Shown here one piece after another: positions 1,194-58,713 of a stretch of 64,000 bases of DNA (positions are counted from its first letter, which is position 1; each line of letters starts with the position of its first letter). Position numbers and translations under genes: made by a program. The notes under the pieces are model-generated. The model saw only the letters and a program-made list of their open reading frames with translations, was not told the DNA's origin and made no database searches. The DNA comes from a virus (lineage: Duplodnaviria; Caudoviricetes). The stretch is taken from positions 23,261-87,260 of the IMG/VR virus record IMGVR_UViG_3300009868_000003. One strand, written 5' to 3'.

Positions 1194-1194
1194 C

Positions 1195-1980: not shown

Positions 1981-1981
1981 G

Positions 1982-3328: not shown

Positions 3329-3337
3329 ATAATCAAT

Positions 3338-5534: not shown

Positions 5535-6194
5535 TTACACCAGTGCGATCTGCCTGACTACAATATCAAATGATACCAATTCTCCCTTATTAATGGTAGG
5601 TTGGAATTTAAGTTTGTCAGTTGTGTCCCAAATTTTTCTTGCAGACTTACCACATGGGGTGTCCAACCATTCTATTTCTATACAAAGAATGTTGTCTTTC
5701 TCTGGGTAAAATCCCAATATAAGGTGAGATGCCTTGCTAAGAGAACGAATCCCAACTGAATCCTCATCAGTTACTATGTAACCTATAACCTGACGTTTTT
5801 CCATCCGTTGAAGTAGGTCATTAAGCTTACAAAAATCATTTGGTCTATTAATTATCATGTCTGTTATCTCGCTCTTATCAAGCTTTATTTTTATGCGGTG
5901 CGGGTTTAGCTTAATTTCTGCCTTATATTTTTCAGGAAGAAAGAGATTTTTATTGGAATCCGAAAAGTTTTTAGCCAATCGGTCAGCCTCGTCTATTGAC
6001 TCGACACCTAACACAATTGAGTCTATTAAAAGGGTCTTTGTCTTAGGAAAGTATGCGATTGTTTTTTCCTTTAAAGTCGAAGCTTCTACGAACCTAATCG
6101 CAAAGAAAACATCTTCTTCAAAAACCTGAGTCTTTTCCCATGAAAAATTATCGCTGGTAATGACTTCAATTGATTTAGTGTTTGGTACTCTCAT
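5535..6194 (-). CDS. hypothetical protein
   Basis: 219-aa ORF in operon. Confidence 0.65.
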   Translation of the reverse strand: MRVPNTKSIEVITSDNFSWEKTQVFEEDVFFAIRFVEASTLKEKTIAYFPKTKTLLIDSIVLGVESIDEADRLAKNFSDSNKNLFLPEKYKAEIKLNPHRIKIKLDKSEITDMIINRPNDFCKLNDLLQRMEKRQVIGYIVTDEDSVGIRSLSKASHLILGFYPEKDNILCIEIEWLDTPCGKSARKIWDTTDKLKFQPTINKGELVSFDIVVRQIALV

Positions 6195-6574
6195 ATTATA
6201 TTTGATGCTTTAAGAATTTCCTCTACTTTAAACCAGTCAACAAATGGACGCCCTTTTACTTTATTATTCTCAACATTTGCGGTCAATGGACAACCAAGTG
6301 CTGTATCGTCAATATACACTTGGGCGTATGCTTTGGGACTTTTGGTCCAATTTTGTTGTGTCGGATTTTCATTTATACCATACAGAGGTATTCCATGACT
6401 CTTAAACCAATTGACAGCATCCTGAAGCGTCTTGTCAGAGCGCATGGTCCATAGAATTATGTGATGATGTTCGCTTATCTGACTTAAAACATTCACAGCA
6501 TTAGGGACATCCTTTCCAACCTTTGGAAACTCATGTTCAACACATGTTCCATCAAAATCAATTCCAAAAATCAT
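6191..6574 (-). CDS. HAD-like hydrolase (BT0820-like)
   Basis: IDFDGT motif I, LWTMR, VYIDD. Confidence 0.8.
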   Translation of the reverse strand: MIFGIDFDGTCVEHEFPKVGKDVPNAVNVLSQISEHHHIILWTMRSDKTLQDAVNWFKSHGIPLYGINENPTQQNWTKSPKAYAQVYIDDTALGCPLTANVENNKVKGRPFVDWFKVEEILKASNII

Positions 6575-6966
6575 TATAGTTTATTACTGTTTTTTAGCTC
6601 CCTATACTTTTCATGTTGCACAAATTCATCGTTTACTTTATACCCCCATTCCCTTTTAGGTTTAGAAGATATGAATAAAGAATAGACAACTGGTGTTAGA
6701 AGTTTCTGAATTTTATGGAATTTTGTACCGTCTCTTTTTGCATACGAACCAGGAGACATAGTGTTAATTCCATTTTCTGTCTCCTCCAAATAAGTTCCCT
6801 TAAGTATTAGTGAAAAGTAATCCCATGGATGGTTATGTAGATGTTTGTCTTGATCTGCTGCATATATTCCATGCAACCAAATGGAAAACCATGGTGTTTT
6901 TAAGATTTCCCACCTTTTAAAGTGTAGCTCTCCCTTCTTCGATCGTATTTCCTTTATTAGCTTCAT
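6574..6966 (-). CDS. cupin-like protein
   Basis: LH..DQDKHLHNHPWDYFSLILKGTYLEE and FHKI metal-binding pattern. Confidence 0.55.
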   Translation of the reverse strand: MKLIKEIRSKKGELHFKRWEILKTPWFSIWLHGIYAADQDKHLHNHPWDYFSLILKGTYLEETENGINTMSPGSYAKRDGTKFHKIQKLLTPVVYSLFISSKPKREWGYKVNDEFVQHEKYRELKNSNKL

Positions 6967-12095: not shown

Positions 12096-12617
12096 ATGAA
12101 GGGTCTGAGGTTATTGTTTCTTTTTATGATTATGTCGGTGTTTGCATTCTCTCAGGATTATGTGGACATTGCCAAGACTAATCTTGAAAAATATAAGGGA
12201 TTGGTTAAAAACAGAACATATGTAATCGTTATTGATTATTCTAAGGCAATAACTTCAGATCGTCTTTACATCATAAACGTTAAGACCAATAAGATTGTTT
12301 TTGTTTCGACGGTCGCCCATGCATATAACAGCGGTTTATTTTATGCAACCAAATTCAGTAACACCCCAGGTTCTAATATGTCATGTATAGGTGCATTTGT
12401 TACTGAAGGTGAATACAACGGTAGCTTTGGTAGGTCGATGGTTATAAAGGGCCTGGAAAAGCAAAATTCTAATGCAAAATCTCGTAGCATCATCTTTCAT
12501 TCAGACACTAAAATGAAAACCAAATGGAGTAAGGGCTGCTTTGCCACTCCAGAAAAAGCAAACTCCACAATCATTAATCTCACCAAAGGTGGATGTTTGG
12601 TCTATGTCTTTAATTAA
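12096..12617 (+). CDS. Murein L,D-transpeptidase catalytic domain protein (YkuD_2 family) with signal peptide
   Basis: IDYSK...RLYII, VAHAYNSG, FSNTPGSNMSCIG, RSIIFH, SKGCFA. Confidence 0.8.
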   Translation: MKGLRLLFLFMIMSVFAFSQDYVDIAKTNLEKYKGLVKNRTYVIVIDYSKAITSDRLYIINVKTNKIVFVSTVAHAYNSGLFYATKFSNTPGSNMSCIGAFVTEGEYNGSFGRSMVIKGLEKQNSNAKSRSIIFHSDTKMKTKWSKGCFATPEKANSTIINLTKGGCLVYVFN

Positions 12618-13852
12618 GCTTGATTAGGTTGAGGAACCTGTTGAACTCCTTGTTGAGGTTGAGCCTGTGCAAGATTCGGTCCACCTGACTGCCACACTTT
12701 AGACCAAAGGTTTTTGGTCGCTTCAGGTTGGTTGTATTGAACAGTTAACCCAATTTTCTTATTTCCAGTCTTTGCTTGCCATGCGATGTAGTGATGAGCA
12801 AAATCATCCATATATCCTGTTAAATCGATGCATCCATGTGAACCTGGTATGCCTCCTCCGTGGATATACATATTATTTCGTCCAAATGTTTCTGTTCCCT
12901 TTAATGGATAGAGAAAACCTCTATAATTACCCCAAGCAATCTGTTCTTCTGCTCCACCTGATTTCCAATCGGTGTTTATTTTTTGGCCGCTTATTGCTTT
13001 ATATGCATTTGAAAGTATGTCAAGTTTAGAATACGAAGTCTGTCCATCTCTTGATTGTAGATCCCTAATTTCATATTCTCCTTCAGGAGTAGGACCTTGG
13101 TCCTTTATCTTTTGCCATTCCTTCGGGTCCTTTAGATACCTATCAAACTTTCCACTGTTCCATGGAGTTATACCAGAAACTGCTTGCCACATCTTCTTTT
13201 CAACACCATCGACCATCCAGTATAAATACGTTCCGTCGAACTTTAGGTGTGCATTTTTAGAATCAGTAACCTTAGGATCGATTTTTTTAGGATCACCAAT
13301 GATGTTATCAATTATTGCTTGGACCTTGTCTTTAATTCCATCGAAGAAGTTATCAATTTTCTGACCTATTCGGTTTATAGATTCCTTAAACTCATCCTTT
13401 AGATTAGAAAGTCTTTGGGCAAACGTTGGATTTTCCTTCGATACTGTCTCAATCTTTTGTTGGACCTTAGGCTCAGCCGCCTTAGACTTGTCTAAAAGCA
13501 CTGTGACAGTCTTTTTTCCAACTATTCCGTCGGTGACCAATCCGTTTTTTTGTTGAAACGAAACAACCGATGCTCTTGTTCTAGGCCCAAACTTACCGTC
13601 ATTCATTGGGACTATCTGTCCTTTTGCGTTTTTGTAGCTTGTTGCCATGTAACCTAAACCTATTAATAAGCTCTGAAGTTCTTTGACTTCAGCTCCTTCT
13701 GATAAAGGTTGGGCTTCATTTACCTTGCTAAAGTCTTCAGGTGTACAAAGGACGATTTTAGCCTTTTTAATTACCTCAATTGCTTCAGTCACTTCTGGTG
13801 ACTTCTTTAGCGTTTTTTGATAGTCTTCGAATCGGTGAATTGTTCTGGTCAT
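12614..13852 (-). CDS. Peptidoglycan-binding domain plus Tlde1/DUF2778-like L,D-transpeptidase-fold domain
   Basis: DGKFGPRTRASVVSFQQKNGLVTDGIVGKKT (PG_binding_1); GPTPEGEY and YIHGG..GSHGCIDL. Confidence 0.75.
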   Translation of the reverse strand: MTRTIHRFEDYQKTLKKSPEVTEAIEVIKKAKIVLCTPEDFSKVNEAQPLSEGAEVKELQSLLIGLGYMATSYKNAKGQIVPMNDGKFGPRTRASVVSFQQKNGLVTDGIVGKKTVTVLLDKSKAAEPKVQQKIETVSKENPTFAQRLSNLKDEFKESINRIGQKIDNFFDGIKDKVQAIIDNIIGDPKKIDPKVTDSKNAHLKFDGTYLYWMVDGVEKKMWQAVSGITPWNSGKFDRYLKDPKEWQKIKDQGPTPEGEYEIRDLQSRDGQTSYSKLDILSNAYKAISGQKINTDWKSGGAEEQIAWGNYRGFLYPLKGTETFGRNNMYIHGGGIPGSHGCIDLTGYMDDFAHHYIAWQAKTGNKKIGLTVQYNQPEATKNLWSKVWQSGGPNLAQAQPQQGVQQVPQPNQA

Positions 13853-14209: not shown

Positions 14210-15289
14210 ATGATTAAAGCAGAAATTGTAGCTGATTCTATTAGCACGTTTAATAGAAGGATCACTACTATGGTCTTAACTTTTCCCAGGTATATCCTAG
14301 CGGAATTTAACACGCACCGAGCATTATCAAAAAATTCGGCATCGTCTAGGGCAATTCCATTCAATAAACCCAAACGACCGATTGATATGATGAGAATGGT
14401 CCAAAATAATCCATTTGTTCCATTGGCCTGGATGATAGACCATGAAGGAATGCAAGGAACAGAATACTTTACAGCTGAACAAGTAAATGGCCTATTATTG
14501 GTAGAAGATTGGCTCAAAGCTAGAACCTTGTTTTTAGAGACAGCAAAGAGCTTTCACGACAGAAAGTTAACCAAGCAAATAGTAAACAGGTTAATTGAAC
14601 CGTTCTTATGGCATACTGTTATAGTGACTGGAACCGAATGGGAAAACTTCTTTGCATTAAGAAATCACCAAGCGGCAGACATTCATATTCAGGAACTGGC
14701 AAAAAAGATGTTAGCTGCATATAATGATTCTACTCCTAAAAACCTTAAACCTGGGGAATGGCATATACCGTTTGGAGACAGGATAGATGAAGATAGACTC
14801 GTCAGAGAACTTGAACTTGACTATCAGCCATATGAAGATGGAACGACAGACGTTGACCACGCTAAAATTCAGATAGCGACAGCAAGGTGTGCTAGGGTAT
14901 CCTATGTGAACTTTGAAGGTAAGGATGATTATTTAGCAGACGTTAAATTATATAGGGATCTCTTAATCGGAGGTCACATGAGTCCATTTGAACACTGTGC
15001 TAAAGCTATGACTAGAGACGAATGGTTAAGATGGACAATTTCATATCCATACTCAGAAGACAAGTTTGATTTATTGAAAGAAGAAATAGGGGACCAAATT
15101 TTAATTCACGAAACAAGCAAACCTGATTCTAAACCTATTAAGATAATTGAACCAGGATGGTGTGGAAACTTTAGAGGTTTTGTTCAACTAAGAAAGACCT
15201 TTAATAATGAAAATAGAAAAGATCCTCGTGTGGTTCAAAAGAAGTATAATTGGAATACAAATGAAACGGTCGATCCAAAGTCTAATTAA
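14210..15289 (+). CDS. thyX: FAD-dependent thymidylate synthase
   Basis: AEFNTHRALSKNSASSRAIP (RHRx7SxR-type motif), NRLIEPF, ARCARVSY, HMSPFEH. Confidence 0.88.
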   Translation: MIKAEIVADSISTFNRRITTMVLTFPRYILAEFNTHRALSKNSASSRAIPFNKPKRPIDMMRMVQNNPFVPLAWMIDHEGMQGTEYFTAEQVNGLLLVEDWLKARTLFLETAKSFHDRKLTKQIVNRLIEPFLWHTVIVTGTEWENFFALRNHQAADIHIQELAKKMLAAYNDSTPKNLKPGEWHIPFGDRIDEDRLVRELELDYQPYEDGTTDVDHAKIQIATARCARVSYVNFEGKDDYLADVKLYRDLLIGGHMSPFEHCAKAMTRDEWLRWTISYPYSEDKFDLLKEEIGDQILIHETSKPDSKPIKIIEPGWCGNFRGFVQLRKTFNNENRKDPRVVQKKYNWNTNETVDPKSN

Positions 15290-23543: not shown

Positions 23544-24446
23544 TTATTTAAAGTCCTCACGGTACTTTAAGACGGCCAGGTCCTTTGACTTCGCTTCACA
23601 TTCAATGTCAAGGACAAGATCATACTGATTGACCCTCTGATATAGGTAATCAGCATGAGCCCTTTCCATTATTTTATCGTTTTCAAACTTACGTTTAGAA
23701 TCAGAATAATGAACAAGCGGAGTTAGACCTTTCCATGTGCTTGCACTAAGTCGAAGAGCATCCTCTTCACTAAGTCCATCGGGGTGTATAGAATGATGAA
23801 GATAATCAAAGGTTATTGGAATTCCAATTTTAAGAAAGACATGGTCAAATAAATCCTTTACAGAATACTGAGAAGTCTTATCGTCGTTTTCAACGACCAA
23901 TCTATTTTTAGCATCCTGTGAAAGTTTATTAAAGTTTTGACAGAATTTTTCTAAGCACTGGTACTTGTCATCATATGTTGCCCCCACGTGAATGTTTATT
24001 GGAAACCGGTTGGTTGAAGGAAGCCCCATTAGTGTAAATATTCTGGCATGTTGATTGAGATCGATTATTGAAGAGGTTACGACCTCGTCACGTTTAGAAC
24101 AAAGGACGTTAAAGTGTCCAGGATGAAAGGAAACCCTCAAGTTATTGTCAAGGACAAATCGACCGATTTCCAACAATTTTTCCTGAATTTGATTAAAGTT
24201 TGGAAGGTCCTCAAATTCATATTCAGACATCCATGGAAATAAGTTACTAGAAAACCTATAGACTAAAATCTGATTTTCTAAGTTCCATCTAAGAACAGTT
24301 AAGAGATCCTGAATGTTTTCGTATGCAAGTTGACCAACGTATTTGAGACCCCTTTTGTTAAAGGTTCGTCTAATCATCTTACGGTTTGTGGAAACTCCCT
24401 GTTTTTCAAGGGTCAGACTTATACAGCAGTAACCGATGTTTTTCAT
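23544..24446 (-). CDS. uvsE: UV damage endonuclease (UvsE/UVDE)
   Basis: IGYCCI, RFSSNLFP, SFHPGHF, NIHVG, VENDD, FDYLHH, HADY, EAKSKD. Confidence 0.92.
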   Translation of the reverse strand: MKNIGYCCISLTLEKQGVSTNRKMIRRTFNKRGLKYVGQLAYENIQDLLTVLRWNLENQILVYRFSSNLFPWMSEYEFEDLPNFNQIQEKLLEIGRFVLDNNLRVSFHPGHFNVLCSKRDEVVTSSIIDLNQHARIFTLMGLPSTNRFPINIHVGATYDDKYQCLEKFCQNFNKLSQDAKNRLVVENDDKTSQYSVKDLFDHVFLKIGIPITFDYLHHSIHPDGLSEEDALRLSASTWKGLTPLVHYSDSKRKFENDKIMERAHADYLYQRVNQYDLVLDIECEAKSKDLAVLKYREDFK

Positions 24447-28386: not shown

Positions 28387-29775
28387 TTATTTTAAGCCTT
28401 TAGCCATAGCTTCAATGTCTAATATGTGTTGTAAAGTATCTGCTGTCGTTTTATCCGTCCGTATTTCTTTATAGACCGGGTGAAGCAATGAATAATTACC
28501 CTCAGAGTCTTGAGAGACACCTGAACATTTTGTCTCGAGGATTGCTCCTTTAAGACTTTCTTGATTTTCAGTAATGTATTTCATTTCCTTCTCCTTTATT
28601 CCAGTCGGAGCTGTAAAAAGAAGTCCGTCTTCAGATACTGCTTCAACTGATGAAATGAGGTGTTCATTTTTCCCAGTTCCATACCTAAATCCGGTTATTC
28701 GTAAGTCGATTGTAATTTCAAGCTTAAGTTTTATTTGCCATTTAGGTTTACCATCCTTCCAGACCCCGTCTATTGACTTAAGAATGTTTCCTTCATACCC
28801 TAAATTTATGGTCTGTTGAAACAGTTTCATTGCTTCAGCATAGCTATTGACATGAGTCGTCTCTATTAGGGAAACCATAGTGGTCTGAGCATCACTTATG
28901 TATTTGGCAATGTTGTCTAACCGTTGACTGTATGGTGTGTCTGAATGTGCCCTGGTATATTCATCAAGTGTAATGGTGTCCCATGTCGTATAACGAATCT
29001 TACCTAAGGCTTCTTTCATTGACATACCATGTTCTTTTTCAAACTCAGCAAGCTCCTTAGTTACCTTCTTACCTTCTATGATTTTGGCATTTATTGTAAT
29101 AAGTGATGCAATTATTCCATTAGACTCATATCGGTTATACCCGTCCATTGTCAGTTCACCGTTAAGAACGCAGTCAGGAAACCGTTTAAGTTCCTCAACA
29201 AACGTTGCTCCTTCTAAGTATGAAGGTTCACCTCCACGACTTTCCATATTAACTATGCCACCCTCAATTATAACGTTTGCATACCGACCGTCCATCTTAA
29301 TCTGGGAATATGCACCATTTCCTTGAGCTAAGAGTTCATCAACCAACTTCTTAGAAAAGGCTTTTGCTCCCATATATGGAGTTTCCTCTATTAAACCTGG
29401 AAATATCTTATTGATGTTGGTGACCCCCATACCGATTTTACAGTCACGGTCGATTATCCTTTCAATAATATATGCATCATCAGGTGATAATGAAGACAAT
29501 ACAGTATGTAGGTGATTTAGTGCATCGTGACCCGTCTTTTCCCTTGAACTTAAAGGAGAAAGTAGATCCATTGCTTCATTTAGAGTCAGAGTAGGACTAC
29601 CTGAATTTTTAGGGTATTCTCCCATGTGTTTGATGTAAAATTTCACTCTAGGTGAATTAGCAAGGTATAATGCTCTTTTTAAGGTTTCATTTTCGGAATA
29701 AGACCGAAGGATGTCCATCTTTGCATTAGAACCGTTGTCTGATGATATATGGTCGAATATTTCTTTAACTGTCAT
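28387..29775 (-). CDS. lig: ATP-dependent DNA ligase (T4 gp30-like)
   Basis: QIKMDGRY (KxDG), LNGELT, EGNILK, IKLK; C-terminal OB fold. Confidence 0.92.
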   Translation of the reverse strand: MTVKEIFDHISSDNGSNAKMDILRSYSENETLKRALYLANSPRVKFYIKHMGEYPKNSGSPTLTLNEAMDLLSPLSSREKTGHDALNHLHTVLSSLSPDDAYIIERIIDRDCKIGMGVTNINKIFPGLIEETPYMGAKAFSKKLVDELLAQGNGAYSQIKMDGRYANVIIEGGIVNMESRGGEPSYLEGATFVEELKRFPDCVLNGELTMDGYNRYESNGIIASLITINAKIIEGKKVTKELAEFEKEHGMSMKEALGKIRYTTWDTITLDEYTRAHSDTPYSQRLDNIAKYISDAQTTMVSLIETTHVNSYAEAMKLFQQTINLGYEGNILKSIDGVWKDGKPKWQIKLKLEITIDLRITGFRYGTGKNEHLISSVEAVSEDGLLFTAPTGIKEKEMKYITENQESLKGAILETKCSGVSQDSEGNYSLLHPVYKEIRTDKTTADTLQHILDIEAMAKGLK

Positions 29776-33096: not shown

Positions 33097-35232
33097 TTAG
33101 TTTGTTCCAGAAGTCTGCTTTTGTTGGATTCTTAAGTCAACTAATCTCTTAGTTTCCTCAAGAAGCATATCAGCATCTTCTTTGGTTATCTTTTTATTAT
33201 TTAAAAGCCAATCGATGTTTTGTTTTGCAACGGTCATGGCCTGAGAATCATCAAGGTAAGCTGTTCCATTCTGGATGCTTATTATAGTTAGGAAGTGTAA
33301 CTGTTTATTGCTGTCTGGAATTGAATCATATGTATCAAACATGACATCCTCAACTGGAGCCATTCCTAAATTCTTCAGCATCTCGTTTTGGTTTCTAGCA
33401 ATGGCTTCAGCATCTTCCTTTTTATAGATAGGTTTTTGACCTAAGTCATTGTCTTTATAACGAACGTCTTTAATGTCTTTATATGCTGGATCGTGAACCG
33501 GCATATAAGTAGAAGCTGCAGCTATTAGTGGTTCGCAATTTTCGTTGCAATTAGGTTTTGCTGTGTATTTTGAAAGGCTCGAATGAATTTCCATGGCAGC
33601 TTGAGTAAACGATGCTTGAACCGTTGGGTCGTTTACGTCTCCTGCATAATTTTTCATAAGGTCAGCCTTAATTTGTTCTACTGTTTGGACCTCAACCTCG
33701 TGTCCGTCTGCGTCGTTAATAGATTCCGACCAGCACCTAAATTGACATAAAAGTGAATTAGATCTTGTTGCAACGTTTCTTAAAACAAGTCTAAAGAAAT
33801 ATTTGAAATATGGAAAGGTAGTAGAAGCAACCCCATTTTTTATTAAACCTGAAATAAGAGCCTTATTTTTATCGACTGTTTTGAGCATGTTCATATACAT
33901 GTTCGGTTTTGCCGCAATAGTCTTTAAAAACACCAGGTCACCTTTAGACAGCCCTTTAACAAAAGCTGGATTATCTAGCATCTTAAGGGTTGCGTTTCTT
34001 AATTCAAGTGCGGAAGCATCCTTCATTAATAGCTTAAATGAAGGCTTAAAGTTTGTGTATTTAGAAAGAGCAGTAGCAAAGACTTCCGCTTCTTTTGTTC
34101 CATGAATTGCTGATTTTTCGACAAGTTCTCCTGCTCTTTTGAAAGATTGAAGAACTCCATGAGAATACTTATATGCTTCTTTCGCTCTTTGTGGAAGCTT
34201 TGCATATTCAGCAGTCTTCATAAAATCGTCAAGATGAGTCGTTATCATTAAGTCTTGGCTATGAGGAACTAGTTTTTGAGTTCCTGACATTCCAGGTTTA
34301 GGGACGGTTACTGTTTTAGAACCGGCTGCTCCTCTTTCTACTGCCTCAATCTCGCGTACAAAATCATCTCCACTTGCCGATAAAGCCTTCATTTTTTGAA
34401 GTGTTGGAGTATTCTTTAAACCTAATATTTTAGTTTCAGCTTTAGTTGAGATCCAACCTACAACCTTTGCAATGCCTGATATTACACCGTCAAACATCTT
34501 ATAGATTATTTCTACTCCACCTCTAAGGAACTCCTTAATGATGTTTATGAATTTACCTCCTCCTACTTTTAGGAATTCGGGATTTTTATATAAGTCTGCT
34601 ACTGCATGAGCTGCTGCTCCTTTATCGGTCTTAAATATGGCCTCAGAGAGAGCCTTTATCCCTGTAAATCTTGCCAATGGCCTGAAAGCTTCAGCCATGA
34701 CTCCGAATGGAAGAAGAGCAATAAAAGATATCGCTGCATCAAAAAATCTACCTTGAATTAAATAGATGATACCGTTAACTAATGCGGCTGCCCTATCAAT
34801 TGGGATTCCAATATATGTTGCTGGGATAAGAGAAACAATATCTAGAATTAGGTGTAAAGCACCCAACATCCAGTTTTGGTCTTCAAAATATGCGCCTTTA
34901 ACGAATCCCCAAACTGCACTTGCAACCTTTCCAATTCCACTAAAAAGGTCCTCATTAATCTTTTGAGCAATGATTTCAAAGTCTTTAAAACGATTTTCAA
35001 AGACAAAGACAGGGTCGGCCCCATTAGAATAAAACTCATGTTCTATTCTAAGCGCTTGTCCCGCACTTATTCCTTTGTTTTCAAAAAAGTTTAAATAGTT
35101 TTCTGTTACCGGTAGGTAATAGAGAGTATCGTCGTACAAATAAGATTTAGACTCAAGGATTTCCTTAAGCTTCTGTCCCTCTGGGGTTCTAAGATATAAA
35201 AATTGATTTATGTCTGGGGATACGAATGACAC
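33097..35232 (-). CDS. large protein with pre-toxin (PT-TG-like) helical hairpin
   Basis: LHLILDIVSLIP..IG..ID.AAAL.NGIIYL.QG...DAAIS..ALLPFG. Confidence 0.55.
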   Translation of the reverse strand: MSFVSPDINQFLYLRTPEGQKLKEILESKSYLYDDTLYYLPVTENYLNFFENKGISAGQALRIEHEFYSNGADPVFVFENRFKDFEIIAQKINEDLFSGIGKVASAVWGFVKGAYFEDQNWMLGALHLILDIVSLIPATYIGIPIDRAAALVNGIIYLIQGRFFDAAISFIALLPFGVMAEAFRPLARFTGIKALSEAIFKTDKGAAAHAVADLYKNPEFLKVGGGKFINIIKEFLRGGVEIIYKMFDGVISGIAKVVGWISTKAETKILGLKNTPTLQKMKALSASGDDFVREIEAVERGAAGSKTVTVPKPGMSGTQKLVPHSQDLMITTHLDDFMKTAEYAKLPQRAKEAYKYSHGVLQSFKRAGELVEKSAIHGTKEAEVFATALSKYTNFKPSFKLLMKDASALELRNATLKMLDNPAFVKGLSKGDLVFLKTIAAKPNMYMNMLKTVDKNKALISGLIKNGVASTTFPYFKYFFRLVLRNVATRSNSLLCQFRCWSESINDADGHEVEVQTVEQIKADLMKNYAGDVNDPTVQASFTQAAMEIHSSLSKYTAKPNCNENCEPLIAAASTYMPVHDPAYKDIKDVRYKDNDLGQKPIYKKEDAEAIARNQNEMLKNLGMAPVEDVMFDTYDSIPDSNKQLHFLTIISIQNGTAYLDDSQAMTVAKQNIDWLLNNKKITKEDADMLLEETKRLVDLRIQQKQTSGTN

Positions 35233-35253: not shown

Positions 35254-35261
35254 TATTTATC
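35254..35261 (-). promoter_or_regulatory. late-like promoter GATAAATA
   Basis: About 21 nt upstream of start 35232. Confidence 0.5.
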
Positions 35262-36330
35262 CCTCTTTAAACCTAGCTACTTTAAGTGCAATCTTTTTGT
35301 AAAGGTCTCCTTGTTCCTCGGTCGAAAGATCCATTAGAAACTTAAGAACTTCGCTATATTGAAATTCACTTTCAAAGCTTAGACCAGGCTCTAACCATGA
35401 AAAATTATACGATACTGGAATTGCTCCAAATATTACAGCTTCATAGATTCTTGCAGGTATGAATCTGTATTGGTTGTATTTGTTTTTTGTTACGTTTAAA
35501 CAGACATTACTGTTTTTAAAAGTGTCCCATGCAACTAAGCGGTTACCTCTTTCAATCAAATGAGTATTACTTTCCTCAAAGTCTTCCCGAAGTTCCGGAG
35601 TTATTTTTGCAACTATTGATAACTTTGGTGATTTACCGGTGAATGTTTTAACTCGTTCTGTTTCAAAAAGAACGTCCTTAAGAATTTGAGATTTTTCATG
35701 ACCTGCTTTATAATTGTTGGCATCGACGTTTCCGTAAAATATTACATTTGAACTAAGACCTCCCTTAAACTTTTCTTTTAAATTTAGTTCTATAAAGGAA
35801 GAGGCAAATTCTTCAGATATTCCTGGAAAATCAATTGATGGGACTATGATTTTTATTCCATGATCTTCCGCAAACGACTTAAATGACGCAGGTAATGAAA
35901 GGTCAGTGTCTACTATATAGGCGTTTTGTGTTGGAAACTTCGAATCTATTATAGTTTTAATAATTTCTTCAAACTTCCAAGTATCTGTTAATCCTTTTGA
36001 GAGGCTTGAAAGGTTTCTAAATCTTGCCTTTAGGAAGATTTTATTGTATTTCTTAGCTTTTATGTAATCGAGAACTTGATTTAGGTCTTGAACGAGTGCA
36101 TCAATATTTTGCTCCGCGAATTCAAACATCAATTTACCATGATTGTCTGTTGGAAAATCACAAGTTAATGGTTCAACATCAGATATGTATGAGAAGACTT
36201 CAAATTTTTGTCCGTCACCATACATTCGTCGTATTGAATCTAAAAGTCCGATTTGATAAAAGGTGTGACCTGGAACGTCCAGTTTAAAATTGGTTCCAAA
36301 TGAACCGAAGTATGCATATAAGTTATTCAT
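35257..36330 (-). CDS. GT-B glycosyltransferase resembling T4 DNA beta-glucosyltransferase
   Basis: NFKLDVP..T.Y, TDLSLP, NVIFYG and NKYNQYRFIPARIYEA parallel recalled T4 BGT motifs (NFKTVP, TDIRLP, DVIYGG, NYNDNFITLRVWE); similar length. Confidence 0.55.
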   Translation of the reverse strand: MNNLYAYFGSFGTNFKLDVPGHTFYQIGLLDSIRRMYGDGQKFEVFSYISDVEPLTCDFPTDNHGKLMFEFAEQNIDALVQDLNQVLDYIKAKKYNKIFLKARFRNLSSLSKGLTDTWKFEEIIKTIIDSKFPTQNAYIVDTDLSLPASFKSFAEDHGIKIIVPSIDFPGISEEFASSFIELNLKEKFKGGLSSNVIFYGNVDANNYKAGHEKSQILKDVLFETERVKTFTGKSPKLSIVAKITPELREDFEESNTHLIERGNRLVAWDTFKNSNVCLNVTKNKYNQYRFIPARIYEAVIFGAIPVSYNFSWLEPGLSFESEFQYSEVLKFLMDLSTEEQGDLYKKIALKVARFKEG

Positions 36331-36733
36331 CTATCTTTTCCTGGTTTCTTCGCCAGTCAAGATATTTTATTAGGACTCCATCCTTTGGTTCTACGTTAAT
36401 ATTTCCTTTTTGAAAGATTTCCCAAGAATCCTGACCATACTTACCAATTCCATGCAGCTCTATGGGCTCTTTCCAATCCTTTTCGAGCCATTCCTTAGAA
36501 AATCTGACTATTGTCTTTGCTCTTTTTTCAGAAAGTCCTAATGGCGTTAAAAATGATTTTAGAAACTCATGGTTCGCTTTAGTTGCACGTTCAGAAGTAG
36601 GATACATCTCGAAGAAAAGGTCTCTAATTCCGTCAACCTGTTTTCTTTGTGTTAGATTTAAAAAGATGCAACATATAAGCATCTTCCAAGGGTCCTTTTG
36701 ATAAATTTCCTGTAAGAGAACAAATGGGCTCAT
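36323..36733 (-). CDS. MBD4-like HhH-GPD mismatch DNA glycosylase (catalytic domain only)
   Basis: SPF.L.QE...DPWK.LI..IFLN.T, PLGL...RAKTIV.FS.E.L...WK.PIELHGIGKYG.DS, P.D..L.KY.DW. Confidence 0.88.
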   Translation of the reverse strand: MSPFVLLQEIYQKDPWKMLICCIFLNLTQRKQVDGIRDLFFEMYPTSERATKANHEFLKSFLTPLGLSEKRAKTIVRFSKEWLEKDWKEPIELHGIGKYGQDSWEIFQKGNINVEPKDGVLIKYLDWRRNQEKIDE

Positions 36734-36750: not shown

Positions 36751-37095
36751 TTAGGATTCTCTTTCTGGTTGTTCAGGTTGAGTAGGGGCAGGCACCTCGG
36801 CTGTTTGTTCGCTTCCAAGTGGAGCATTAGACAATGACATATCCTCTTCTCTCTTCTTATCAAGGTTTTCAAGCTCTTCTGGAGTCTTTTCCCTTTCTAA
36901 GTTAATTTTATGTTGAATATCATCATTCTTAAGCGGAAAAGATTTTCCACTTGGGTCTATTGCAAGGTATGATTGTGAAGTCGATTCGACTCCAATAATG
37001 TTAACTAATCTTCCATCCTTGAGGCGTACTCTATCCCCTCCCTTATATTTACTAGGACGTAGGTCTAAGAATGCGGACTCATAGTCCTCAAACAT
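36751..37095 (-). CDS. hypothetical protein, SH3-like N-terminus
   Basis: YKGGDRVRLKDGR..I pattern. Confidence 0.55.
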   Translation of the reverse strand: MFEDYESAFLDLRPSKYKGGDRVRLKDGRLVNIIGVESTSQSYLAIDPSGKSFPLKNDDIQHKINLEREKTPEELENLDKKREEDMSLSNAPLGSEQTAEVPAPTQPEQPERES

Positions 37096-38675
37096 TAGTT
37101 TTTTTTAGACAGATCTAATGCAACGTATTTATTCTTAAGGGAAACTAAGCTTTTTTGGATGCTTTCCTTAAGAGTAGTAAGATGATCTAGAACATCAGGA
37201 GTTATATCTGGGTTCTTGAGAGCCTCGGAGATTTTAACCTCAGACTGTTCAAGTTTTGCAATATCGGTTTCAATTGCTCTCTTCTCTTCATCAATAATAA
37301 ATGCGGTCTCTTCTGCTTCACTTAGTTGTATTGAATACAGATCCCTAACATCGTATTGGAATTTTTCAAGAACATATATATGGAAACCTACTGGACTAAC
37401 CTTTACGAACTTATCGCTAGTTGTTGTTCCTTTTTCCATCACAAAAACCTTATCCTTAAACCCGATTGCATATGATTCATTTGCAAACTGAGTGTTTCTA
37501 ATCCTTTTTACGTTTTGAAGGTTTACAATTTGAGAAAGACCTTCAAAGAAATCAGCAAGATTTTGACGAACGTTTGTTGACTCCATCATTCCAATCTCAG
37601 TAACATTAACGTTTTCAGGTTCAACCTTAGACCCTGCTATAAATACTTCAACGTTTCCTGATTCATTTGTCTTAAGGCTTACCTTAACATGACGTGTTCC
37701 GGTTGAAACGAATTTTCCTTCTATTTCTTTAAATCCTAAATAATAAAAAGCTTCACATACTTTTCTAAAAGATTCTGGAAGACCTTCGTATTCTTCCTGC
37801 GAAATTAAATCAGGGTCGGTCTCTTCCTCTTCTCCTTCAATTTCTTCGTCTTCTTTGATAACATACATCTTACTGTCGACAAAGAAATAGGATTTATTTT
37901 CATTTTTCATGAATGGGCTAATAACGTCGGAAACGGTGGTTGCACCAGAACCTATACCCATATCAAATCCACCTTCGCCTTGAGCTTCATACATTTTAAG
38001 AGCATTAACAAGACGATTCACAACTGCAACATTCTTAAAATCACGGAGTCTCATAGAGATAGCAGAAGACGTTGTTTCGTCCTTTTCAAGACACTCTTCT
38101 AACACTAAGCACAGATTCTTATAAATTAAGTTGTTAACTCTTTCAAGCTCAAAAATAGTGTCAGCTATCATAAGCTTTGGTTTATTCTCTTCAAGGAATA
38201 CCTTGGCTTCTGTTACGACCTCTTTAATGTCTGCGTCATAGACATAGTTTTCGAAAATCCTAATAAATGGAACCAGAGATTTGAATTCTGGTAAAACCGC
38301 GATAGCCTCTTCTATTTTATCACAGCTTCCCTTTACAATTGGATCCTTAGATGCCTTAGACCCTTTAACCTTCTTAACTTTATCCTTAAGACCAATTGAA
38401 CCTAACAGTTTCTTGGTCTTTTTCTTAGGGGTATTAAACAGTTTTTCTTTTTTGTCTTTAACTAGGTTCTTTATAAAGTTTTTCTTTTCACCAACGAAGT
38501 CGCTTAATGCTTCTAGGTTATTTAGAAGGCTCTCGTACACTTCATCTGAGTCGCTGTTAGTGTTAACAACGTTCTTAGCACCATCCAAATACATTTTTAC
38601 TACTGGGTGGTTAGCCAACGTTTCATCAGATTGAAGTTCTAATATTAATTCTTGAGTCATTCCTGCCATTGCCAT
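37095..38675 (-). CDS. putative structural protein with C-terminal coiled coil
   Basis: 526 aa; late-like motif upstream; morphogenesis context. Confidence 0.6.
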   Translation of the reverse strand: MAMAGMTQELILELQSDETLANHPVVKMYLDGAKNVVNTNSDSDEVYESLLNNLEALSDFVGEKKNFIKNLVKDKKEKLFNTPKKKTKKLLGSIGLKDKVKKVKGSKASKDPIVKGSCDKIEEAIAVLPEFKSLVPFIRIFENYVYDADIKEVVTEAKVFLEENKPKLMIADTIFELERVNNLIYKNLCLVLEECLEKDETTSSAISMRLRDFKNVAVVNRLVNALKMYEAQGEGGFDMGIGSGATTVSDVISPFMKNENKSYFFVDSKMYVIKEDEEIEGEEEETDPDLISQEEYEGLPESFRKVCEAFYYLGFKEIEGKFVSTGTRHVKVSLKTNESGNVEVFIAGSKVEPENVNVTEIGMMESTNVRQNLADFFEGLSQIVNLQNVKRIRNTQFANESYAIGFKDKVFVMEKGTTTSDKFVKVSPVGFHIYVLEKFQYDVRDLYSIQLSEAEETAFIIDEEKRAIETDIAKLEQSEVKISEALKNPDITPDVLDHLTTLKESIQKSLVSLKNKYVALDLSKKN

Positions 38676-38691
38676 GAGGCTTATTTTGATT

Positions 38692-38699
38692 TATTTATC
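38692..38699 (-). promoter_or_regulatory. late-like promoter GATAAATA
   Basis: 16 nt upstream of start 38675. Confidence 0.5.
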
Positions 38700-38704
38700 C
38701 AATT

Positions 38705-40675
38705 TTAACCAGTTTGAATGTTAGTTATCTTAGATAGTTTAGCATTCAATGTGTTTTGGAACCTTGCCTTGTTTGTTGGGTCAAACTTTAACAATATTGC
38801 ATTGTCTGGGCTAGCCTTAATACTTATGTTTTCGTTATCCTTAGCTTGTTGAAGCTGGGCTTCCAACTCAGCAACCTTATTTCTTAAGTCTGCTATTGTT
38901 TCTAAATTATCCTTTTCTGTCTGATATATCGAATTTACTTCATCTCTATCATCTACACTATACCATTTACCTGAATAAAATGATGTTTGGGTTCCGTCTG
39001 TTGCTATTGATATTAAGTGAAAGTTATTATCATTGGACTGAAGGATTTTCTTAGAATCATCTTTAGTGACTTTGAATAGGATTTCGCCTAGACTAGGATT
39101 AGCCTTAGTCTGATCATTAATACTTTCAACAGTGACCTGGCCATCACTTGTATTAAAGACAAGGCTTAATGAAGAATTAAGGTTTAGATCCATCGGTTGA
39201 ATAACATCAGCCACACCTGGTTTTGTTATTTTGGTGTAAACCTTAAACTTAAATATGTTGTCAAAAGGTTTAACAACTATGGGCAGTTTTCCTTGACCGA
39301 ATGCGATGACATCATTGGTGTCCTTAACTGTCACCATATGACTTTCTTCAGACACCGCTATATTCTGAGATTCATAAAACATTGGAACAAATTGAGTAAT
39401 GGTTGTGCCAACACTTGCAGTAGTGGTATTCGGAAGTATTGTGCTCGTAGTATTGCTAGGTCCTATAAAAAGAAGGGTAGAATCAAAGTTCTTTTTGATT
39501 AACTTATTGTATATCTTTTGAGACTCAGGGAGATCTTTAAGCTTAATAGAAACTAAGTGAGCCCCATACTTATTAGGATTTAAAACAACAAGTGAACCTG
39601 ACCTTATTATTTGGTCTCCATTATTTTGATTAAGAAGTCTTACTGTATAATCAATTGTCATTGAGATTGCTTCTTCTGCGTGTTCCAATATTGGTCTAAA
39701 TTTCTGCGGAGCATCAAAATTATCAGTTTGATATTGCACCAAATTAGCCGTCTTTATGAATGATGTTCCTACCTGTTCATATACTGTCAGTTGATGAATT
39801 AGAATCCAATTTTCGCCAGTCCTTGTATTTAAGACTGAAATTAGTTCCTCTGGGAATCCGCTGTTCCATGTGGCAAAAAATTCAATATAATCACCGACTG
39901 TCGATTCCTGAATATGAACTCCTAAATTATCAAATTCGTTTACCTGAACAACATCTGTTTCAAAATGTCGAACTGTGTTAAAGATTTCATACTTAGTATT
40001 ATTTGTTACCAAGTCAGGTGCAGGAGTACACTCATCTAGAGATATTGAAATTGGGCTGTTTTGGATAAACCCTATTCCATCAGTTATTTGATAAGCAAAA
40101 GTTGAGGGCCTGTTTGATGAAGTGTAAAATTCTTCGTCTATGCTTTTAAGGGAAGGTATTGTGATCTCAATATACCTGTCATAAGAAGAGTCCCTTAGAA
40201 AAATAGGTTTAGGGTTAAACGTTAAAAGATATTGCGAAGTCAGTTGATCTAACAAAAGACATGCTAATAAACCAGTCCTCTCATCGGTTAGGTTTTGTTT
40301 TATTGAGAAAACAAGCTTTTGAACTTCGCTAAAATTAAAACCTGTTGCAAAGTGAATTCTTACCTTATCGACTACTGGATTATACCCCGCTATTAGTGAT
40401 TCAGAAACGGTCGTGTCATATAATGTATAGTTAGGAATCTTCTCTTGGTCAAGGTAAACGTATTTTCCTCCATCAAGTGGCATAACCGTTAAATCCTTAA
40501 CGTTTTTAGTTGTGTATAAATATGCGTCCTCATTATAAATTTGGACGGTAGAATCACCACGTTTGGTTGCAAAAAAAGGAATATTTATAATTTGAGTAGA
40601 ACCTAGCGGCTCCATCCTGTATTCAACAAGACAGTAATCAGTAAGGCTTACAAATTTAATTATACCAGTTGCCAT
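38705..40675 (-). CDS. putative structural protein
   Basis: 656-aa beta-rich ORF in morphogenesis region. Confidence 0.6.
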   Translation of the reverse strand: MATGIIKFVSLTDYCLVEYRMEPLGSTQIINIPFFATKRGDSTVQIYNEDAYLYTTKNVKDLTVMPLDGGKYVYLDQEKIPNYTLYDTTVSESLIAGYNPVVDKVRIHFATGFNFSEVQKLVFSIKQNLTDERTGLLACLLLDQLTSQYLLTFNPKPIFLRDSSYDRYIEITIPSLKSIDEEFYTSSNRPSTFAYQITDGIGFIQNSPISISLDECTPAPDLVTNNTKYEIFNTVRHFETDVVQVNEFDNLGVHIQESTVGDYIEFFATWNSGFPEELISVLNTRTGENWILIHQLTVYEQVGTSFIKTANLVQYQTDNFDAPQKFRPILEHAEEAISMTIDYTVRLLNQNNGDQIIRSGSLVVLNPNKYGAHLVSIKLKDLPESQKIYNKLIKKNFDSTLLFIGPSNTTSTILPNTTTASVGTTITQFVPMFYESQNIAVSEESHMVTVKDTNDVIAFGQGKLPIVVKPFDNIFKFKVYTKITKPGVADVIQPMDLNLNSSLSLVFNTSDGQVTVESINDQTKANPSLGEILFKVTKDDSKKILQSNDNNFHLISIATDGTQTSFYSGKWYSVDDRDEVNSIYQTEKDNLETIADLRNKVAELEAQLQQAKDNENISIKASPDNAILLKFDPTNKARFQNTLNAKLSKITNIQTG

Positions 40676-57351: not shown

Positions 57352-58713
57352 TTAAGAAGGTCTGTTCTGGCTTCTTTTTTGCTTAAGCTTCTTTATTTCG
57401 ATGAGTTCAGTCTTACTGTCAATTGTTGAATTTTCAGAAAGAGTTCCCCGTCTTACTATACATTCACTAAGGTTGGCAAATATCATCTTTCCTGGCTTGT
57501 TTTTAATGAATGACATCCTAATTTCATTCATACCTTCTCCATTAAATAGACAATCATCAACATAACTATATCGTATATCGTTTCCGTTTAAAATCTCACA
57601 TTCCTTTATCATCGAAGAACGAACCTTACACCCATAAAGCAAACATTCTTTAAGTTCTCCCTCAACATAACACTCAAAAAATTGAAATCCTTCCAATAAA
57701 AACCCGTTTTCAATTTTAGCCCCTTTGATTTGTAATTTTTTAAGGTCTGAATCATAATTTACGACTCCCTTCTTAAGGTTACCATACATTACTAAGTCAA
57801 ATAGTTTATCCCTAAATGCTGGAAACATTGCTGTTATTTTTTGGTGCTCAGAAATGGTGTCAACATATAGAGAAATATCAGGGTATGATAATTTAAAGTT
57901 CTCATAACTTCTCATTGATTCTATTCGCTTCTTCTGTTCAGCGATAACTCGATTTATCCTATGTCTTTCAATATCAGAATAAGTATTGTTATTGGATAGA
58001 GTGTTGTAAATATTCTCTATTATGATGTTTATGAGTTCAATCGATTCGTTTTTCTTCTTTTCATAACCCTGTCCACCTGCATATCTTACTTCAAGGTAAC
58101 CTTTAGCCAGTTTTGTAAAATTGACTCCAAAGTATTTGGTTGCAGGGTACACAAAATCCATAGGATTTGCACCATGTGAATAATTTAATGCAGCTTCTCC
58201 TAAAAATTTATTCTTTGGGTATATGAAAGAGACCGAATTTTTATAAATCTTCTGAACCTTTGATGTAGCATTAGGCCAAAGTTCGAATATTTTTTCCTCG
58301 TTTAAGTTAAGTATAAATTTGAAAACGTTTAACGATTCCATTCTATTCTTTAAACCTGCATCAAATTCATTTATTGAAACGTTTATATGCAGGCCTGACT
58401 TGTCATTTGTAAACCCATTCTCTTGAATAAAATTCATGACTTTAAAGAAGACCTGAATTGCTTCATGATATGGTAATGGACCTGTCACAAGTTCATGCAT
58501 CTTAAAACCACCTGAATAATCAGGTTCAAGTTTAAATTGGTTCTCATCAACTGGAATAGTTGAATGATATGTTCCTGTCTTAACAACCTTTTTGTTTAAT
58601 AATGCAGAAAGCCTCTCAGCTAGCATTTTTCTTGGCATTGGCGAAAAGAATTCGAACTCGAATCCTAATTTAGCATTTTCAAATGCCTTAGACTTGTTGA
58701 TATCTTTATACAT
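57352..58713 (-). CDS. putative amidoligase (Amidoligase_2, COOH-NH2 ligase) with beta-helix-like C-terminus
   Basis: GFEFEF, EPD.S, ELVT, SGLHINVS, KYFGVN, EVRYAGG. Confidence 0.75.
   Translation of the reverse strand: MYKDINKSKAFENAKLGFEFEFFSPMPRKMLAERLSALLNKKVVKTGTYHSTIPVDENQFKLEPDYSGGFKMHELVTGPLPYHEAIQVFFKVMNFIQENGFTNDKSGLHINVSINEFDAGLKNRMESLNVFKFILNLNEEKIFELWPNATSKVQKIYKNSVSFIYPKNKFLGEAALNYSHGANPMDFVYPATKYFGVNFTKLAKGYLEVRYAGGQGYEKKKNESIELINIIIENIYNTLSNNNTYSDIERHRINRVIAEQKKRIESMRSYENFKLSYPDISLYVDTISEHQKITAMFPAFRDKLFDLVMYGNLKKGVVNYDSDLKKLQIKGAKIENGFLLEGFQFFECYVEGELKECLLYGCKVRSSMIKECEILNGNDIRYSYVDDCLFNGEGMNEIRMSFIKNKPGKMIFANLSECIVRRGTLSENSTIDSKTELIEIKKLKQKRSQNRPS

Follow-up and report, generated by a model that had tools for sequence, protein, structure and literature searches.

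The glucosyl-5-hydroxymethylcytosine system of bacteriophage T4 consists of the gp42 dCMP hydroxymethylase, the gp56 dCTPase and the alpha- and beta-glucosyltransferases, of which the beta-glucosyltransferase (BGT) belongs to PF09198 and CAZy family GT63. In T4, neither a glycosylase nor an FkbM methyltransferase is linked to these genes, in contrast to the phage group described here. GT-B enzymes that act on 5-hydroxymethylcytosine (5hmC) are also known from metaviromes (GT53, GT66 and GT94; Pyle et al., 2023, bioRxiv 10.1101/2023.12.21.572611), and arabinosyl and hexosyl transferases have been described from RB69, DLP3 and RL38J1 (PMC13326640). The glycosyltransferases (GTs) of both studies are associated with thymidylate synthase (TS)-family pre-replicative pathways, and a linked DNA glycosylase is reported in neither (Pyle et al., 2023; PMC13326640). 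MBD4 glycosylases excise U, T and 5hmU alike, and MBD4-type enzymes require a G mismatch, so that hmU:A from misincorporation would not be a substrate (PMC3458566).

The window analyzed here, a stretch of 64,000 nucleotides, belongs to the partial genome of a large T4-like phage that has not been cultured and has a T4-type terminase; its own record is 87 kb long and 34% complete. On the minus strand, a gene for an MBD4-type glycosylase (36323..36733, 136 aa) is followed by a GT gene (35257..36330, 357 aa). The original prediction that these genes overlap by 8 nt was confirmed for the ORFs and the overlap by direct reading of the sequence: at 36323..36330 on the minus strand (ATGAATAA), the end of the glycosylase gene (...GAT GAA TAA) lies over the start of the GT gene (ATG AAT AA), the GT start codon falling within the terminal codons, stop included, of the glycosylase gene. 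This arrangement suggests translational coupling. In relatives, the junction ranges from an overlap of 4-8 nt to a spacing of some 20 nt or more. The GT start agrees with the N-terminus of GT homologs, and neither gene is a chance ORF, because both belong to large conserved families. Scans upstream of the pair for the T4 late promoter motif (TATAAATA), sigma70 promoters and terminators returned nothing specific. The conserved upstream flank (36751..40675) consists of p114 (36751-37095), p526 (37095-38675) and p656 (38705-40675); the conserved downstream flank is p711 (33097..35232, 711 aa), and all four genes are on the minus strand. The pair sits close to baseplate and terminase genes, in a block of uncharacterised genes that may encode virion proteins.

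Judged by its sequence, the shorter of the two proteins (136 aa) is an MBD4-type HhH-GPD glycosylase that stands on its own, in agreement with the original prediction. In a PDB phmmer search, its residues 2-134 matched 4ew4, 1ngn and 4dk9 (E about 5e-34), an alignment at E 4.6e-34 covering chain residues 9-143; its Pfam HhH-GPD match was weak (19.6 bits). It is about 50% identical to mammalian MBD4 (4EW4, 4EVV, 4EW0, 1NGN, 4DK9) over the whole catalytic domain, and has in common with it the HhH, the catalytic Asp, a Gln/Tyr pair, an Asn and the hydrophobic wedge. The HhH sequence LHGIGKYG aligned to LHGIGKYG of MBD4, the catalytic Asp is D118 (mouse D534) and the base-reading pair is Q8/Y99 (mouse Q423/Y514), each of which is invariant in 39 family members; N26 (mouse N441) and L65/L67 (mouse L480/L482) are further matches. 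In MBD4, Gln423 and Tyr514 read O2/N3/O4 of T or 5hmU (PMC3458566). Unlike mammalian MBD4, the phage protein contains neither the methyl-CpG-binding domain nor the arginine finger. The ORF encodes the catalytic domain only (family members have 130-159 aa), and mouse R442 is replaced by Leu27 in the window and by Cys, Gln, Leu or Met across the family, with an invariant Arg30 found family-wide three residues downstream of Leu27. The 136-aa enzyme is predicted to excise T, U or 5hmU opposite G. A pattern scan of 185,579 prokaryotic species genomes did not find the phage MBD4-type domain.

From its structural model, the 357-aa protein can be assigned with confidence to the GT-B glycosyltransferases, as a member of an unnamed phage family. 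The AF2 model (pLDDT 94.8) has the two Rossmann domains of the GT-B fold, which the protein shares with T4 BGT, as it does a similar size (357 vs 351 aa). The family comprises more than 280 homologs; those of the window's own subclade have 66% and 55% identity, and two metagenome scans retrieved only relatives at about 36-40% identity. The protein had no match in Pfam, PHROGs, NCBIfam or by PDB phmmer, was not found by tblastn among 50,697 GenBank phages, and gained no membership of PF09198, PF00534 or PF13524 in a Pfam search at E <= 1. Its best Pfam GT match, Exostosin GT47 (E 0.1, 12.3 bits), was far under the cut-off.

The GT had originally been called T4 BGT-like on the basis of shared motifs. 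The motifs themselves, DTDLSLP (141-147) and R294..E297, do occur in the protein and do not vary among 68 homologs, but the proposed residue-for-residue equivalence to BGT was not confirmed by hhalign. DTD141-143 was not aligned to the region of D100, the window GT having H22 and D141/D143 as candidate catalytic residues in place of D100, and R294/E297 stood opposite BGT R269/E272 only in a non-significant alignment. The hhalign probability of the GT family profile was 0.6% against T4 BGT, 1.3% against T4 AGT and 1.1% against a BGT-like profile, and T4 BGT as a tblastn query found nothing in 80 GT loci or the window's own record. In the hhalign comparisons, the sequence could not be related to a proven DNA GT, and with no PF09198 match either, the BGT-like label does not hold at the sequence level.

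The proposed structure comparison with BGT recovered a shared GT-B fold (1c3j, Z 14.3, 268 residues aligned; 1qkj, Foldseek E 2.5e-5), but GT4/CgeB enzymes were closer: PglH (6EJI) at Z 17.2, BshA (6N1X) at Z 16.8 and PimA (2GEJ) at Z 16.3, with about 285 residues aligned. ESM Atlas rows for CgeB/GT4 gave TM 0.65-0.70 against the model. Like the GT4/CgeB enzymes, the window GT has a C-terminal R..E..G.IPV nucleotide-sugar motif; unlike them, it has one Glu only of the EX7E pair, invariant N-terminal motifs particular to its family (PGH..YQ, KARFRNL and DTDLS) and a DNA-modification gene context. Closeness to CgeB-like transferases had been named at the outset as grounds for abandoning the DNA-modification reading. 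That closeness was found, yet it does not discriminate, as the folds of proven DNA GT-B enzymes are likewise similar to those of PglH and LPS transferases (Pyle et al., 2023). The window model is similar, compared by description only, to the GTs of Pyle et al. (2023) and PMC13326640 in resembling both T4 BGT and Campylobacter PglH (6eji, the top neighbor). Fold ranking does not tell DNA GTs from glycan GTs, and fold closeness was dropped as a criterion, because PDB Foldseek, VIA wide, BFVD and ESM Atlas all gave generic GT-B lists. Isoelectric point and net charge were also dropped, as the BGT homologs of sister phages are as acidic as this GT family.

The conserved gene order around the GT in relatives is p656-p526-...-GT-p711. 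Upstream of the GT, p656 and p526 are found in 73-76 of 80 relatives, and p711 lies downstream in 54 of 80 loci, there recognized by weak but recurrent tblastn matches. The same p656/p526 flank also precedes BGT homologs in sister phages, in whose loci p711 is again downstream. In a slot survey anchored on p656, which yielded 61 informative loci, the position between p526 and p711 was occupied by this GT in 47 and by a T4 BGT homolog in 13, never by both. These BGT homologs match over nearly the full length (tblastn E 4e-16 to 9e-12), pass PF09198 (35.7 bits vs the cut-off of 27) and keep D100 and R269/E272. More distant GT homologs, at 30-35% identity, are found in dUTPase-kinase-UDG-like-GT-hydroxymethylase clusters, where they adjoin a gp42-like hydroxymethylase. 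Comparative genomics thus points to a role of the GT in DNA modification.

This context has to be weighed against the view that the GT acts on a non-DNA acceptor, such as a virion protein, an envelope glycan or a small molecule, and that the MBD4-like gene is a general-purpose repair accessory inserted by chance. The partner of the GT in most relatives is a methyltransferase of the FkbM family, whose members typically tailor glycans. The model is nearer to glycan and small-molecule transferases of the GT4/CgeB type (Z 16.3-17.2) than to BGT (14.3), the surrounding gene block may encode virion proteins, MBD4-like genes occur unlinked elsewhere, and the phage encodes further repair enzymes (UvdE and a ligase). 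We nevertheless regard a non-DNA acceptor as unlikely, given that a genuine T4 BGT homolog occupies the same slot in sister phages in a mutually exclusive manner, that distant homologs lie beside a gp42-like hydroxymethylase, dUTPase and kinase, that relatives with the hmC pathway have no other recognizable DNA GT, and that the PglH- and LPS transferase-like fold is equally a property of proven DNA GT-B enzymes (Pyle et al., 2023).

The glycosylase gene is less constant than the GT slot, and the original expectation that the two genes would be linked in relatives holds in part. The glycosylase gene is directly 5' of the GT gene, at a constant position, in 39 of 80 relatives, but it is often absent and was gained or lost at least eight times on the GT tree. 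It was not found in relatives that are 84% and 70% complete and have the full hmC gene set. In other phages it also occurs unlinked: at 10 of 25 other viral loci, an MBD4-like gene has no GT within 4 kb. GT, BGT and hydroxymethylase genes were not found in the records with unlinked MBD4-like genes, nor MBD4-like genes in BGT-type sister records, but most of the records in both searches are 9-51% complete and these negatives are therefore uninformative. The glycosylase is accessory and dispensable to the GT locus. Besides the MBD4 fold, we noticed an unrelated UDG-superfamily protein (profile vs 1l9g, E 1.2e-4), whose gene lies beside a DNA GT in all nine viral loci where it was observed, seven of the BGT type and two of this GT family. 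The pairing of a DNA GT with a glycosylase therefore recurs.

The tight linkage and the 8-nt overlap with the GT gene are all that speaks for a glycosylase that helps to make the modification, by generating abasic sites or editing the acceptor before or after sugar transfer, as one version of the original prediction had it. That version found no support and is highly improbable: half of the relatives, including the 84% and 70% complete phages with the full hmC set, have no such gene, the retained T/U-specific reading residues exclude cytosine derivatives, and genome-wide base excision would be destructive.

The source of the acceptor base was sought in near-complete relatives (84-100% complete). 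A gp42-type TS homolog, closest to MilA and T4 gp42, is present in all five and retains the gp42 signature, i.e., Asp at ThyA N177, L143 and D169, under the residue criteria of PMC13326640. It adjoins a dCMP deaminase, and four of the five relatives have a gp56-type dCTPase; as in T4, gp42-type, gp56-type and dCMP deaminase genes thus occur in the relatives of the window's phage. Neither T4 AGT nor BGT was found in these hmC-pathway relatives. The proposed search for a hydroxymethylase or TET/JBP was accordingly productive for the former in the relatives, whereas the TET/JBP search of the five relatives gave no match and has little weight, since control genomes gave none either. The absence of a dCMP hydroxymethylase from the window, noted originally, was borne out and extended: no TS-family gene is present there or in the whole 87-kb record. 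A hydroxymethylase, a dCTPase and a dCMP deaminase are all missing from this record because, at 34% completeness, it does not cover the syntenic region that would carry them. The possibility that the window's ThyX-like gene is an unrecognized hydroxymethylase was dismissed, since the gene keeps the ThyX signature and matches phrog_85 (phage thymidylate synthase) at 1e-63. ThyX occurs in the own record where relatives have ThyA, which indicates that the nucleotide metabolism of the window's phage differs somewhat. That this phage itself produces 5hmC, and hence its base chemistry, is what we infer from its relatives.

The GT might also modify DNA on another acceptor (5hmU, 5-hydroxycytosine or another base), with the glycosylase policing misincorporated or mis-modified uracil-type bases, e.g., hm-dUMP formed via dCMP deaminase, or host-deaminase lesions, rather than spontaneous 5hmC deamination. 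Consistent with this are the own record without a gp42-type gene and with ThyX vs the relatives' ThyA, the ability of some TS homologs to make 5hoC rather than 5hmC (PMC13326640), the clade's dCMP deaminase adjoining the hydroxymethylase, and the excision of U, T and 5hmU alike by MBD4 enzymes (PMC3458566). The TS homologs of relatives, however, carry Asp, the 5hmC-type residue, at the D169 position, where Asn would mark the 5hoC type, TET/JBP was not found in the five relatives (nor in control genomes), and the requirement of MBD4-type enzymes for a G mismatch leaves hmU:A outside their substrates (PMC3458566). We consider another acceptor unlikely.

The reading that we regard as reasonably probable is that the GT glycosylates 5hmC in phage DNA and that the MBD4-type glycosylase removes the deamination products of 5hmC. 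The GT would move a sugar from a nucleotide-sugar donor onto 5hmC in replicated phage DNA, as a functional analogue but not a sequence relative of T4 BGT, and the sugar would shield the phage genome against host nucleases. The 136-aa protein, whose translation would immediately precede that of the GT, would serve as a monofunctional MBD4-type mismatch glycosylase that flips out and excises U, T and 5hmU opposite G, 5hmU from 5hmC deamination being the most relevant. Excision would initiate base-excision repair at sites of damage which, in hypermodified DNA, host enzymes may be ill suited to process. Acceptor base, sugar and repair role are here our inferences. The originally proposed pair of a sugar-modified pyrimidine and an enzyme that removes its deaminated form is thereby upheld in part, by the BGT slot, the gp42/gp56 pathway and the recurrence of UDG-like genes, while the failure of the BGT label at the sequence level, the dispensability of the glycosylase and its unlinked occurrences weaken it. 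More tentatively, hmC-glycosylating phages may repeatedly recruit their own base-excision glycosylase beside the DNA GT, in which case the two unrelated folds would represent an undescribed layer of repair or proofreading dedicated to hypermodified cytosine DNA, removing G-opposed 5hmU (perhaps glycosyl-5hmU) that host repair cannot process or that host deaminase defences create. If this is true, it would further imply a transfer of the MBD4 catalytic domain between eukaryotes and phages; the closeness of phage and animal MBD4 is also relevant to where the eukaryotic enzyme came from.

If 5hmC glycosylation is correct, a clade of abundant freshwater jumbo phages would run the T4 anti-restriction chemistry with an undescribed GT family, and the FkbM methyltransferase beside the GT in most members would hint at a methylated sugar on DNA. 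The enzymology of DNA hypermodification would be widened and could provide new tools for 5hmC labelling, and the compact (136 aa) MBD4-type enzymes are on offer for the detection of G:T and G:5hmU. The linked glycosylases also raise the unstudied question of how deamination damage is kept out of the hypermodified genomes of phages.

The two open reading frames of the original prediction, which encode a 136-aa MBD4-like glycosylase (36323-36733, minus strand) and a 357-aa glycosyltransferase (GT; 35257-36330, minus strand), were both present. Direct reading of the sequence confirmed the reported 8-nt overlap: the glycosylase gene ends in GAT GAA TAA and the downstream ATG AAT AAC begins inside this junction, which suggests that translation of the two genes may be coupled. 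The GT start codon agreed with the N-termini of 67 aligned homologs. Each of the two is a member of a large conserved family, so neither reading frame is attributable to chance. Their source, an 87,260-bp IMG/VR virus record that is 34% complete by CheckV, encodes a T4-type large terminase, a baseplate wedge protein, PhoH, a ligase and UvdE. Relatives reach 250-271 kb, so that this record covers only part of a T4-like jumbo phage genome.

In a phmmer search of the PDB, MBD4 glycosylase domains were the only matches of the 136-aa protein (E about 5e-34, residues 2-134), whose identity to mouse and human MBD4 was about 50%. Unlike mammalian MBD4, the window protein consists of the catalytic domain only, without the methyl-CpG-binding domain. 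In mouse MBD4 on G:T and G:5hmU DNA, Gln423 and Tyr514 recognise thymine or 5hmU at O2/N3 and keep out cytosines (PMC3458566). Residue mapping placed these two at Q8 and Y99 of the window glycosylase, Asn441 at N26, the Leu480/Leu482 wedge at L65/L67, and catalytic Asp534 at D118, so that the catalytic Asp is retained as predicted. Q8, N26, L65, Y99 and D118 were invariant in the alignment of 39 phage MBD4-like proteins, in which the L67 position was mostly Phe, with hydrophobicity kept. The arginine finger (mouse Arg442) is Leu in the window protein and Cys, Gln or Leu in the family, and an invariant Arg lies three residues past this position. From its sequence, we read the 136-aa protein as a putatively active, monofunctional glycosylase with T, U and 5hmU opposite G as its predicted targets.

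By sequence, GT had no match in Pfam, PHROGs, NCBIfam, the PDB or GenBank phages; its more than 280 metagenomic homologs are all without names, and no Pfam model exists for the family. An AlphaFold2 model built with 68 homologs (pLDDT 94.8) had a GT-B fold. Its top structural matches were of the GT4 type (PglH 6eji, Z 17.2; BshA, 16.8; PimA, 16.3), with T4 alpha-glucosyltransferase (AGT, 14.8), T4 beta-glucosyltransferase (BGT, 14.3) and the phage HY126 GT (14.1) slightly below. Foldseek, BFVD and the ESM Atlas concordantly placed CgeB/GT4 clusters nearest to GT by structure, and by language-model features the 30 nearest clusters included three of the T4-Gluco-transf type. The proposed likeness to BGT stands for the common GT-B fold, although GT4/CgeB enzymes are nearer. 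Proximity to CgeB-like enzymes had been named as evidence against a DNA glycosyltransferase. Given that proven phage GT-B DNA glycosyltransferases resemble both BGT and PglH by fold (Pyle et al., 2023), this criterion does not discriminate. Comparisons of the GT profile with T4 BGT, T4 AGT and the BGT-like profile were non-significant (about 1%); the proposed alignment to D100 and R269/E272 of BGT is therefore unsupported beyond a generic C-terminal R..E..G.IPV motif. The family-invariant residues H22 (PGH), K101/R103/R105 (KARFRNL), D141/D143 (DTDLS), K208, K213, R261, R264, K282, R294 and E297 could be active-site candidates, and we infer that GT may have a His-Asp dyad, as in inverting GT1 enzymes.

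DNA is the likely acceptor of GT. In 80 viral loci with a GT homolog, the gene order was p656, p526, p114 or p91, an FkbM-family methyltransferase, the MBD4-like gene where present, GT and p711, in which the p-numbered proteins are named by length. We surveyed the interval between p526 and p711 by anchoring on p656, not on GT. Among 61 loci with enough downstream sequence, this interval held GT in 47, a T4 BGT homolog in 13 and neither in one, the two being mutually exclusive. The BGT homologs (tblastn E 4e-16 to 9e-12, residues 2-337 of 351; PF09198 at 35.7 bits, above the cut-off of 27) retained D100 and R269/E272. In the same survey, the methyltransferase and the MBD4-like gene occurred only with the new GT and never at BGT-type loci. 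Outside the p656 block, two distant homologs of GT (35% and 30% identical) lay in clusters of a dUTPase, a P-loop kinase, a UDG-like protein, GT and a hydroxymethylase like T4 gp42. In some BGT-type sister phages, BGT is immediately preceded by genes for a 379-aa homolog of adenylosuccinate synthetase (PF00709 E 1e-44) and for a DUF6378 protein (L130:12236-13375 and 13383-13661; L121:12250-13389); such a PurZ-like enzyme would suggest 2-aminoadenine DNA on top of modified cytosine.

The FkbM methyltransferase (PF05050, TIGR01444) was found in 76 of the 80 loci, but was absent at the window locus and throughout its record. It lies directly upstream of GT (PF05050 E 1e-11, TIGR01444 E 1e-18; e.g., L006:4973-5773, L016:5082-5900 and L008:5117-5917) and is conserved more strongly than GT itself. 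The window, L062 and L080 have the MBD4-GT pair without the methyltransferase, and L002 has GT with neither gene. The methyltransferase may methylate a DNA-borne sugar. Among prokaryotic genome assemblies, GT has a single homolog, encoded by a contig (CAIWBA010000291.1, 254,203 bp) binned into an uncultured Bacteroidetes MAG; as this contig is as large as a whole phage genome of the clade, it is probably a mis-binned phage, and its binning may hint at a Bacteroidetes host.

Pathway genes were examined in five long relatives (70-100% complete). Each contained a divergent thymidylate synthase homolog of about 290 aa, alongside or replacing canonical ThyA, with the CMP hydroxymethylase MilA (1.5e-23) and T4 dCMP hydroxymethylase (4.7e-19) as best PDB matches, ahead of all thymidylate synthases. 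In such homologs, Asp at the ThyA N177 position indicates dCMP specificity and Asp at the L143 position hydroxymethylation rather than methylation, while 5-hydroxy-dCMP synthases have Asn at the D169 position (PMC13326640). Aligned with T4 gp42, the relatives' protein had Asp at N177, Asp three residues ahead of the catalytic Cys (the L143 position) and the retained Asp at D169. A dCMP deaminase gene directly follows it, four of the five relatives encode homologs of the T4 dCTPase gp56 (32-36% identity), and T4 AGT or BGT homologs were absent from all five. The lack of a hydroxymethylase noted for the window extends to its whole record, a 34% fragment without hydroxymethylase, dCTPase or deaminase that does not extend into the stretch syntenic to the hydroxymethylase locus of the relatives. 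For thymidylate synthesis, the window phage encodes ThyX (14210-15289, plus strand, 359 aa; Pfam Thy1 36 bits; phrog_85 E 1e-63; THR..S....SSR motif), whereas its relatives have ThyA; a PDB sequence search at E 0.01 gave no match to this ThyX, and the five relatives lack a homolog.

Linkage of the two genes in relatives, on which the original prediction depended, was borne out in part. The MBD4-like gene was present in 39 of 80 GT loci, directly 5' of GT every time, and GT adjoined it in 15 of 25 viral loci; in the other 10, however, no GT lay within 4 kb. Such unlinked genes were found with a UvsW-type helicase upstream, flanked by a 2OG-Fe(II) oxygenase (PF13661) and a 429-aa protein (L108:3251-3961 and neighbours), or beside an NAD-dependent sugar epimerase and ThyA (L102:2666-3556). 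The MBD4-like gene was missing in relatives 84% and 70% complete, near-identical GTs differed in its presence, and parsimony on a quick maximum-likelihood GT tree gave 12 changes, at least 8 of them forced by well-supported branches. The glycosylase is optional for GT. The best support for functional linkage comes from a second glycosylase fold: the UDG-like protein of the distant GT clusters, a UDG-superfamily member (229-239 aa; profile against Thermotoga maritima family-4 UDG 1l9g, E 1.2e-4) with an altered motif A, G-[FLI]-x-P-G, and HPSY..R. A DNA glycosyltransferase adjoins its gene in 9/9 viral loci (L213:1605-2294, L216:5209-5928, L219-L227 around 6001-6600): a T4 BGT homolog in seven of them (E 1e-27 to 1e-36) and a member of the window's GT family in the other two. 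These loci often have a gp42-like hydroxymethylase close by. We found no published link between an MBD4-like or UDG-like glycosylase and a DNA glycosyltransferase of a phage, and a linked DNA glycosylase is unmentioned in Pyle et al. (2023) and PMC13326640.

Elsewhere in the window lie genes for a UvdE UV-damage endonuclease (E 4e-57; 23544-24446, minus strand) and for an ATP-dependent DNA ligase (28387-29775, minus strand); together with the MBD4-like gene, they equip this phage with an unusually broad repair set. Consecutive plus-strand genes at 294-4258 encode NAD synthase, a 2OG-Fe(II) oxygenase (weak match), a 448-aa cytidylyltransferase-like protein, probably NMNAT-type, and a cREC_REC cyclic-phosphate receiver-domain protein; this block looks like NAD salvage or signalling, not sugar-nucleotide synthesis. 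Also identified were an Amidoligase_2-family protein among tail and baseplate genes (57352-58713, minus strand) and a PG-binding protein (12614-13852, minus strand; endolysin-type PHROG matches) that includes an L,D-transpeptidase/Tlde1-like domain.

In the proposed mechanism, the phage would replicate with 5hm-dCTP, as its clade suggests, and GT would then glycosylate 5hmC in duplex DNA. Deamination of 5hmC would leave 5hmU mispaired with G, to be excised by the MBD4-type enzyme, and repair would be finished by AP endonuclease, polymerase and ligase; the window phage encodes the ligase, and the host may supply the other activities. No member of the MBD4-like family turned up when 185,579 prokaryotic species, each represented by one genome, were scanned by pattern, and the family thus looks phage-restricted among microbes. 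Together with its identity of about 50% to mammalian MBD4, this raises the question of transfer between phages and eukaryotes.
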